DNA of 64,000 nucleotides. Origin: an uncultured bacterium (GTDB lineage: Bacteria; Patescibacteriota; Minisyncoccia; Phycocordibacterales; CAIRYW01). Positions 38,367-39,323 of this stretch are shown in pieces. Position numbers and translations under genes: made by a program. The notes under the pieces are model-generated. The model worked only from the letters and a program-made list of their open reading frames with translations, was not told the origin of the DNA and did no database searches. Position 1 is the first letter of the stretch. Every line of letters starts with the position of its first letter. The stretch is from assembly GCA_963766885.1 (NCBI GenBank), contig CAVYBO010000002.1, positions 464,606-528,605 on the forward strand. The letters run 5' to 3'.

Positions 38367-39323
38367 TCAAAAGATTGTAAATTTTCTTGATTTTCCGCAA
38401 AATCCTTTTTTGGTTTTTGTCCGCAGTAATCTATGTTGGGGAAAATTAACGTATCCCAAGAAATCAATTCCTTGGTGGAATTTTTTGATAGTAATTTTTT
38501 TAGGATGTAAACCCAGCTCCAACTTTTCCGAAAGGAAATTTTGTAATGCTGGGATTATTTGTTTCAAATAATCTTCGTTTTGCGATATTATAATGAAATC
38601 GTCCGTATATCGGACATAATTTTTTATCTTCAACCCATGTTTTACGAACTGATCAAATTCATTCATATAAATATTGGTAAACATTTGGGAAGTCAGGTTG
38701 CCGATTGGTATTCCTTTTGCGCGAAGCGCAAAACCTCTCTCTCTCTCTCTCTCTCTCTCTCTCTCCTGCAATACCGGCTGGGCTGTATAACTGGAAATAA
38801 TTTCTTCAAGAAGATTCAGTGTCTTTTCATCTTTGATTTTATTTTTCAAAATTTCAAAAAGAATTTGGTGGTCAACGCTGTCAAAGAATTTTTGTATGTC
38901 GCATTTAAGCGCATAACAAGTTTGCGTGTTATTTCGACTTGCCTTGCGGAGCAGAGTAGACAATGTTTCCACTCCTTTGTGAGTTCCTTTGCCAATACGA
39001 CAAGAAAAAGAATTGGAAATAAATGTCGGTTCGAATACCGGATTAAGCACTTTGAATATGGCGTGGTGAAGAACTCTGTCTCGAACGGTGGCTTTATGAA
39101 TATGTCTAACTTTCGGATCACGAATCCAGAATCCTTTGTATGCTCCATGCTTGTAGCTTTCGTTCTTCAAATCCCTGTAAAGCTGAAAAATATTTTCCTC
39201 CAACTCAAGCTCGAAATGAATCACATCTGGTTTGTTGCCCTTGTCCGATTTGAATACATCCCAAGCTTTGAAAAGATTAGTCGGAGAAATTATTATAGGA
39301 AATAAATTATTGTAAATTTTCAT
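38367..39323 (-). CDS. diversity-generating retroelement (DGR) reverse transcriptase
   Basis: RT motifs are present. Motif 4 has the DGR-specific IGNLTSQ (GIPIGNLTSQMFTN). The catalytic motif is YTDD (RYTDDFIII). The start was chosen at MKIYNNLFP (39323). The longer ORF up to 39818 is template repeat (TR) read-through. Confidence 0.85.
   Translation of the reverse strand: MKIYNNLFPIIISPTNLFKAWDVFKSDKGNKPDVIHFELELEENIFQLYRDLKNESYKHGAYKGFWIRDPKVRHIHKATVRDRVLHHAIFKVLNPVFEPTFISNSFSCRIGKGTHKGVETLSTLLRKASRNNTQTCYALKCDIQKFFDSVDHQILFEILKNKIKDEKTLNLLEEIISSYTAQPVLQERERERERERGFALRAKGIPIGNLTSQMFTNIYMNEFDQFVKHGLKIKNYVRYTDDFIIISQNEDYLKQIIPALQNFLSEKLELGLHPKKITIKKFHQGIDFLGYVNFPQHRLLRTKTKKGFCGKSRKFTIF
38735..38764. 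repeat. (CT)15 dinucleotide microsatellite inside the RT coding sequence
   Basis: 30 nt of perfect CT repeat. On the coding strand it is (GA)n encoding ERERERERER between RT motifs 2 and 3. Confidence 0.9.

Follow-up and report, generated by a model that had tools for sequence, protein, structure and literature searches.

The DGR of the window

The stretch of DNA analysed here (64,000 nucleotides, referred to as the window) contains a DGR, whose reverse transcriptase (RT) ORF lies at 38367..39323 on the minus strand. It encodes 318 aa with motifs 1-7 (Pfam RVT_1, 9e-28), the last ~12 residues being out-of-frame, and is identical to the database protein P0001. The top matches of its AlphaFold model in Foldseek were 8ub7/8ubd, the solved Bordetella-phage DGR RT (E 2e-17). 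A bAvd-like accessory gene (39324..39674, plus strand; PF22296, 4e-18) is inverted relative to the RT, and the two ATGs abut (CAT directly followed by ATG). The template repeat (TR) was located by repeat search at 39723..39840 (minus strand), and the variable repeat (VR), at 40197..40314 of the same strand, forms the 3' end of the DGR target gene, a minus strand ORF (40191-41093) without Pfam match. TR and VR are 84% identical, with 18/18 core mismatches at TR adenines. Downstream of the VR a short hairpin (AGAGGG-CTTGT-CCCTCT) is found, followed by a terminator-like hairpin.

The IGNLTSQ motif, bRT as the best structural match, the bAvd-like protein, the adenine-only differences between TR and VR and the hairpin after the VR are all shared with the canonical DGR of the Bordetella phage BPP-1 type (RT-Avd-RNA complexes 8ub7/8ubd). 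In contrast to the canonical system, avd is inverted and abuts the RT start, and a microsatellite is inserted in the loop between motifs 2a and 3 of the RT. By all sequence criteria except an intact RT the element of the window is a genuine DGR, and the divergence of its VR from the TR shows, as read from the repeats, past DGR activity.

The closest relative of the window RT is P0002 (84% identity), an intact RT of 357 aa found on four metagenome contigs, L001-L004, the gene maps of which show the same inverted-avd layout. Where the RT homologues had a source name, it was Paceibacterota, Nomurabacteria or Parcubacteria, so that the host of the window DGR is a CPR/Patescibacteria bacterium. Other assemblies of the window's species were sought by exact-protein look-ups; those with RT, PGK and RecJ gave no match, and the one with Avd led to a 100% identical Logan contig, L205. 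This sole other assembly of the species has a VR identical to that of the window and ends 100 nt into the RT, so it does not reach the microsatellite.

The microsatellite occupies 38735-38765 and consists, in the raw sequence, of 31 perfectly alternating bases, (CT)15 with a trailing C on the plus strand. Tandem Repeats Finder reported period 2, 15.5 copies and 100% matches at this position, and no other dinucleotide run of at least 5 units occurs in the 64-kb window. On the coding (minus) strand it is (GA)15 flanked by a G; it specifies (ER)5, and its assembled length is in frame, the translation around it being ...SSYTAQPVLQ-ERERERERER-GFALRAKGIPIGNLTSQ.... Motif 2 (KCDIQKFFDSVDH) precedes it, motif 3 (GIPIGNLTSQ) comes directly after it and the catalytic RYTDDF lies further downstream; in the AlphaFold model the tract corresponds to a loop of low confidence (pLDDT<50), which connects two helices of good model quality. 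A preliminary description of this DNA had placed an in-frame (CT)15 microsatellite encoding ERERERERER between motifs 2 and 3 of a DGR RT, and had proposed that gain or loss of one or two units would truncate the enzyme before its catalytic motifs. The raw sequence, Tandem Repeats Finder and the translation agree with the first statement, and the second also holds, as the 15 units are in frame and with 1 or 2 units more or less the protein would stop short of motifs 3-7.

One base after the tract a GC-rich stem-loop can be drawn (38715..38733, minus strand; TTTTGCGC-TTC-GCGCAAAA on the coding strand), with an 8-bp stem and a 3-nt loop. GC-rich stem-loops 1-8 nt past the tract were detected in about 35% of the tract loci (MFE <= -5) and were absent or weak in the others. 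The stem sequences of the relatives differ, and the loops are often TTC or TGC. Since L051 and L061, for example, use different reading frames for the DNA of the hairpin region, conservation of the hairpin is at the nucleotide level. Rfam gave no known RNA family at the tract. A relationship of this hairpin to those of the VR or the TR was ruled out, the sequences being without resemblance.

Further downstream the RT of the window departs from its relative. In a DNA alignment with L001 two A-runs of the minus strand stretch 38382..38411, at 38406-38411 and 38382-38385, were each 1 nt shorter than in L001. Neither deletion was mentioned in the preliminary description. Together they put the RT thumb in the +1 frame (SYLGVLSHANAYKF); the thumb-coding remainder of the gene (38237..38381, minus strand; NLQSFENG...SLQSYLGVLSHANAYKF...) is thus in a frame different from that of motifs 1-7. 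When the first A-run deletion was restored, the reading became RILRKIKK, identical to P0002. With its thumb in another frame than in L001, the RT of the window DGR is not an intact, expressible one. Either this copy is truly damaged or it may carry two rare homopolymer errors of sequencing. As assembled, the RT is probably inactive whatever the tract length, with its thumb detached. Because the gene is already disrupted by these two 1-nt deletions, the tract of the window may no longer control anything and may be a relic.

Of 137 related loci, 135 keep the frame across the junction that links motifs 3-7 to the thumb. The break is essentially unique to the window, and a second recurrent switch at the thumb A-runs was therefore ruled out. 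A frameshift-prone assembly was discarded as well, the other long ORFs of the window being intact; the overlapping ORF pair at 45219-46227 represents two separate pilin-like genes. The split dnaE of L001 was considered as a repeat-mediated case and rejected, its cause being a 23-nt deletion.

The (GA)n tract in related reverse transcriptases

Runs of ER/RE, 4-12 aa long, were found at the same alignment position in 26 of the 118 best full-length RT homologues (55-67% identity), these being the homologues with a locatable motif 3. The DNA behind the ER/RE runs, as seen in 78 related genome loci, is uninterrupted (GA)n, 15-23 nt long, with mixed codons in no case; what is present is therefore a microsatellite at the DNA level and not a selected ER peptide. 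The carriers of the tract are scattered over deep RT lineages, with identities between carriers down to 51%, and the tract is absent from most close homologues. The loop between motifs 2 and 3 is 16-28 aa long in carriers versus 11 aa in most non-carriers. Since the tract corresponds to a low-confidence loop and the length of this loop varies so widely, in-frame length changes should be tolerated. A large group of CPR/Patescibacteria DGR RTs has a (GA)n at one fixed place, in the fingers loop that joins motifs 2a and 3.

The specificity of this location was surveyed in 1.23 Mb of CPR DNA and the window by collecting all dinucleotide SSRs of at least 6 units. In this material, which included 120 loci preselected for the tract, 133 of 139 such SSRs were at the RT tract site. 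The remaining six had GA/CT units without exception, and five were in DGR genes or beside them. At the same RT site there are three compound tracts, (CT)n(GA)m. The others are a (GA)11 at the RT C-terminus of L018, a (GA)10 at the avd/RT junction of L078, the right flank of which (GTAAACGC) is as at the RT tract, and a (GA)16 with a hairpin in an ORF of unknown context in L191. Other cassettes thus have the GA module also at the 5' end of avd or at the C-terminus of the RT.

Reading frames and length polymorphism in metagenomes

All 78 loci of the genome-contig sample (78/78) were in frame, in a sample which had been ranked by tblastn score and was thereby biased against split genes; as evidence against switching this number was set aside. 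Because of this bias, a frame-blind DNA pattern, (GA)7-N{6,36}-CCNATHGGNAAYYTNAC, was searched for, in which CCNATHGGNAAYYTNAC encodes PIGNLT. In 2.9 million viral contigs the pattern gave 0 matches, and at least 120 loci were obtained from metagenome contigs. The N-part and the C-part of the RT were then placed on each locus by tblastn, and 106 loci among the matches listed could be scored. The frame of the C-part relative to the N-part was 0 in 21, +1 in 47 and +2 in 38 of them. When one locus was kept per 95%-identity cluster of the listed matches, the corresponding numbers were 19, 44 and 36. In-frame alleles make up 20% of the listed loci versus 33% expected by chance (p=0.003), and are rarer than random. 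Seven frame calls were re-examined on the raw sequence and were upheld. The preliminary description had advised a search of homologous RTs for the repeat and for out-of-frame alleles; the outcome was positive, with (GA)n of variable length at the same site and 85 of the 106 listed loci out of frame.

Among the listed matches the tracts measured 15-51 nt with a median of 22, and the 31 nt of the window belong to the top 11%. Out-of-frame (OFF) alleles occurred at every tract length of this set, including 15-19 nt, where they were as frequent as in long tracts. In 83 of the 85 listed OFF alleles the C-part was without stops, and the apparent stops in the N-part of OFF alleles were mostly upstream of the true start. 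For both halves of the RT the bits per residue were the same in OFF and in in-frame (ON) alleles. All three frames are occupied, with both gene halves intact.

The truncated form was also found among database proteins. A protein search with the N-part only returned mostly short proteins of 165-270 aa, and at least 76 of 118 short database proteins were RT N-halves ending 0-36 aa after the ER/RE run. The tails of these truncated proteins are a frameshifted reading of motif 3, and some of them are encoded on contigs of 200-960 kb. Candidates close in length to the query were apparently preferred in this search (P0002 did not come up), and the result is taken as proof of truncated products only and not as a measure of ON/OFF frequencies.

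Length differences between otherwise identical contigs were looked for in nine clusters of contigs with near-identical flanks, and three clean cases of whole GA units were obtained, with 0-7 mismatches over 419-600 nt of flanks. In the first one L086 and L116 (18 nt, OFF) differ from L106 (20 nt, in frame), which comes from a different sample, with 0 mismatches in 600 nt of flanks. The second pair, L146 (15 nt) and L158 (17 nt), has 0 flank mismatches as well, while in the third, L098 (15 nt, OFF) and L204 (19 nt, in frame), there are 7. L136 was dropped as a case of polymorphism since the contig begins inside the tract, and the pairs L120/L122 and L156/L189 were not accepted as clean, as they show differences beyond the unit number.

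The first case was informative also for the activity of the DGR. Between L106 and L086 the VRs differ at 19 positions, 18 of which are TR-adenine sites, the TRs show 0 differences, and beyond the divergent first 300 nt only 4 other SNPs are present. The 18 differences at TR-adenine sites mean that a DGR carrying the tract has been active recently, and this in a population with a toggling tract. The VRs of the two OFF contigs, L086 and L116, are identical; in this single example (L106 versus L086/L116) there is a hint that the ON allele accompanies VR diversification.

The tract as a probable switch on DGR mutagenesis, and other explanations

The explanation we favour, and consider fairly probable, is that the (GA)15 tract is an allele of a hypermutable SSR which gates DGR mutagenesis by turning it ON and OFF stochastically and reversibly, with OFF as the more frequent state. 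Replication slippage would add or remove whole GA units, and each change which is not a multiple of three units would separate motifs 1-2 from motifs 3-7 and the thumb. With the frame lost no functional RT would be made and the VR would be frozen, until a later slip brought the frame back and mutagenic retrohoming restarted. OFF would be the usual, dominant allele in nature. The hairpin present at about a third of the loci is not needed by a pure model of DNA slippage.

Some elements of this proposal go further than the alleles themselves. The differences between assemblies suggest that slipped-strand mispairing may proceed at a high rate within clonal populations, and within clones the switching would presumably be reversible. 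The OFF alleles are predicted to be without RT product, although RNA-level or ribosomal slippage on the (GA)n could rescue them. The tract may be kept by selection for switchability, and the excess of OFF alleles could also be a matter of neutral or deleterious drift.

CT tracts in outer-membrane protein genes of Helicobacter pylori, as well as the poly-G and tetranucleotide tracts of Campylobacter, Neisseria and Haemophilus, are examples of SSR contingency loci. As in such loci, the repeat is perfect, short in unit, inside an ORF and above slippage length ((GA)15, 100% pure, upstream of the catalytic motifs), and gain or loss of units shifts the frame; the CT/GA unit is that of H. pylori. Unit number is polymorphic among near-identical genomes of the relatives, where ON and OFF alleles coexist, and alleles of both kinds are found with the gene otherwise intact (21 versus 85 listed loci). 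The repeat is kept at the same site in orthologues down to 51% identity, though the peptide could be encoded otherwise. Loci of this kind, in which phase variation occurs by slipped-strand mispairing, have been reviewed (e.g. PMC11868660). They differ from the present one in the gated gene, which here encodes a DGR RT, in place of surface antigens, restriction-modification enzymes or glycosyltransferases. Since this RT belongs to a targeted hypermutator, one stochastic switch would control a second generator of diversity. The hosts also differ, being uncultivated CPR bacteria of environmental samples such as groundwater in contrast to host-adapted pathogens, and the tracts of the DGR RTs reach 51 nt; the likeness is one of structure. 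The preliminary description had recognised in the tract the architecture of a contingency (phase-variable) locus, and at the level of the RT lineage this view is supported by the variability of (GA)n, by the 85 OFF alleles among 106 listed loci, by the whole-unit polymorphism and by the truncated N-halves.

The alternative which survives best, and which we nevertheless regard as unlikely, is a mutational hot spot without adaptive value. A GA microsatellite situated in a loop tolerant of length changes would simply break RTs, and the OFF alleles would represent DGRs being lost or VRs irreversibly fixed. The scarcity of in-frame alleles, lower than random, is in line with this, and so are the further inactivating deletions of the window RT. 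Sporadic inactivation of DGR RTs by frameshift, nonsense mutation or IS insertion is indeed known from other DGRs (Schillinger et al. 2012, PMC3521204). The RTs described there resemble the OFF alleles in having an interrupted frame with TR and VR intact, and a frozen VR was proposed for them. However, those cases are isolated, apparently irreversible and at arbitrary positions, whereas in the present RTs one hypermutable tract is the constant place of the break, which recurs in hundreds of lineages and is reversible in principle. Decaying genes would be difficult to reconcile with OFF alleles which carry no extra lesions and have both halves conserved as in ON alleles, nor is the control junction between motifs 3-7 and the thumb broken in the relatives (135/137). 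Moreover, pure tracts persist across lineages which are only 51% identical, though non-repetitive ER codons would be possible, and ON and OFF alleles coexist with identical flanks and fresh changes in the VR. All these argue for the switch and against a mere hot spot.

A recoding site, on which a 2-nt slip would perfectly re-pair both tRNAs (ribosomal -2/+2 frameshifting) or the RNA-DNA hybrid (RNA polymerase slipping by repeat units), possibly with the help of the hairpin, is less probable still, and we think it doubtful that full-length RT is made from any allele in this way. It is likewise doubtful that the tract length serves as a heritable rheostat for RT dosage, and hence for the rate of targeted hypermutation, with every allele yielding some full-length RT. 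The geometry resembles that of a frameshift signal, with a slippery tract, a spacer of 1-8 nt and a GC-rich stem-loop in about 35% of the loci including the window, and both halves of the gene seem to be under constraint even though about 80% of the alleles are out of frame. In this respect the tract is similar to the sites of programmed frameshifting or transcriptional slippage in dnaX, IS elements and prfB, where a slippery tract is found, with a stem-loop at comparable spacing in some of our loci. Known programmed frameshifts have one fixed offset. In contrast, 0, +1 and +2 are all common here, and since no single offset is conserved (21/47/38), the tract does not fit a programmed-frameshift site. 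Most loci do without the hairpin, some alleles are in frame, and in the N frame the first stop comes anywhere from 0 to >100 nt after the tract, with no constraint on this distance. No Rfam element was found at the tract, and changes of length were seen directly in the DNA. To our knowledge, neither efficient -2 frameshifting nor dinucleotide transcriptional slippage in the elongation phase has been established in bacteria; if the recoding reading were true, the tract would be the first case of natural -2/+2 slippage on a dinucleotide repeat to be recorded in bacteria. Recoding could coexist with switching at the DNA level.

The preliminary description had named a hot spot of assembly error as the alternative to a contingency locus. 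According to this, the 15 units of the window and the out-of-frame relatives would be mis-called repeat lengths, which we hold very improbable. Microsatellites are prone to stutter, 6 of the 120 listed contigs end within 35 nt of the tract, and the window RT has its two homopolymer-length differences. On the other hand, hundreds of contigs show the pattern, which stem from many projects and assemblers independent of each other, and OFF alleles are equally frequent for tracts of 15-19 nt and for long ones; OFF tracts of 15-20 nt are far shorter than assembler k-mers and reads. The same contigs are essentially unbroken at the control junction, equal tract lengths were obtained in independent samples (L086 = L116, L099 = L153, L118 = L135), and the other long ORFs of the window are intact.

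The last possibility, selection for a charged (ER)n linker or helix that serves RT function, with the repetitive DNA as a by-product, is next to negligible: many intact homologues do have ER runs and AlphaFold draws a low-confidence helix there, but the run is always pure GAGAGA in AT-rich genomes, never with GAA or CGN codons, is read in all three frames (ER, RE, out of frame) and is unconstrained in length, and most close homologues have an 11-aa linker instead.

We found no description of an SSR or a repeat-based switch in a DGR RT in the literature, including the DGR surveys PMC8144416, PMC5758913 and PMC11661182, though an earlier mention may exist. SSR phase variation itself is known; its application to the engine of a targeted hypermutator is what would be new in the stochastic switch proposed here. 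This would have consequences in several directions. CPR bacteria are among the richest carriers of DGRs. To the best of our knowledge, no other prokaryotic systems than DGRs change the sequence of a selected part of a protein at such very high rates. If the proposal is true, a two-tier bet-hedging would operate, in which a stochastic switch picks the cells that run the targeted hypermutator. This would explain the apparent inactivity of many CPR DGRs in population surveys, as well as the numerous "truncated" or "partial" CPR RTs in the databases, which are likely missed by protein-based DGR surveys. The number of GA units in reads would offer a countable marker of DGR firing in natural communities, and the biology of contingency loci would reach beyond host-adapted pathogens, to ultra-small bacteria with a free-living or episymbiotic way of life.

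Repeats and a stem-loop around the GA tract

In about one third of the loci a GC-rich stem-loop was found 1-8 nt 3' of the (GA)n tract that lies, on the coding strand, between motifs 2 and 3 of the DGR reverse transcriptase (RT). In the window it occupies 38715-38733, and other examples are the related loci L164, L197, L161, L174, L095 and L117. The loop is frequently TTC or TGC, while the sequence of the stem varies by lineage. Since the element is translated in differing frames across the loci, its conservation is at the level of nucleic acid.

At three related loci the RT site carries a compound palindromic repeat, in which (CT)8-10 is followed immediately by (GA)n (L115, 1092-1109; L155, 53-72; L195, 1434-1449). 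This repeat is translated as SLSLSL-RERERE and could fold into a long hairpin or a cruciform. Simple (GA)n tracts were also observed at other positions: (GA)11 at the extreme C-terminus of an RT (L018, 4049-4070), (GA)16 with a hairpin within a 108-aa ORF (L191, 920-951), and (GA)10 at the divergent junction between the RT and avd, the gene for the bAvd-like accessory protein (L078, 849-868). The last of these is followed by GTAAACGC, a flank which it has in common with many of the RT-site tracts.

The RT gene and its neighbourhood in the window

In the window, two 1-nt deletions in A-runs (38382-38411, minus strand), recognized by comparison with the closest relative, put the RT thumb (38237-38381, minus strand) out of frame with motifs 1-7. 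The junction between motifs 1-7 and the thumb is in frame at 135 of the 137 related loci. The break in the window reflects either genuine damage to the gene or two homopolymer errors.

The bAvd-like gene is encoded on the strand opposite to TR and RT. Its ATG and that of the RT gene abut directly (CAT|ATG, 39321-39326), thus no intergenic room is left for divergent promoters. The same layout is kept in the relative whose RT is 84% identical (contig L001, 5650-6003). Just upstream of TR, the minus strand at 39845-39965 gave a sub-threshold Rfam match to the RT-16 RNA (RF03019), which scored 27 bits where the gathering score is 50; the region may represent a diverged RT-associated structured RNA.

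Differences between near-identical contigs

The closest relative is represented by four near-identical contigs. In one of these, L001, a 23-nt deletion at about 8105, as compared with L002, splits the gene for DNA polymerase III alpha. A repeat-mediated origin was considered for this deletion and rejected. Four further differences separate the two contigs: those at 5097 and 5107 are close to the 3' end of the target gene, and those at 5266 and 5297 lie a short distance downstream of that gene.

Between the related loci L106 and L086, 51 differing positions, including indels, were counted in about the first 300 nt of L106, whereas the remaining 3 kb is nearly identical except for VR and the tract. 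This divergence could reflect either a recombination boundary or an additional variable segment.

Other genes of the window

Two neighbouring small ORFs at 45219-46227 (minus strand) each carry an N-terminal methylation (type IV pilin-like) motif of their own; a single split gene was rejected, and the two are distinct pilin-like genes. An ORF of 1152 aa (49777-53235, minus strand) gave only a weak Neopullulanase-like_C match. It contains long, near-perfect tandem repeats (50407-52302) with a period of 456 nt in 3.6 copies at 99% identity, and also with a period of 180 nt. Its product looks like a repeat-domain surface protein, the repeat copy number of which could be variable.
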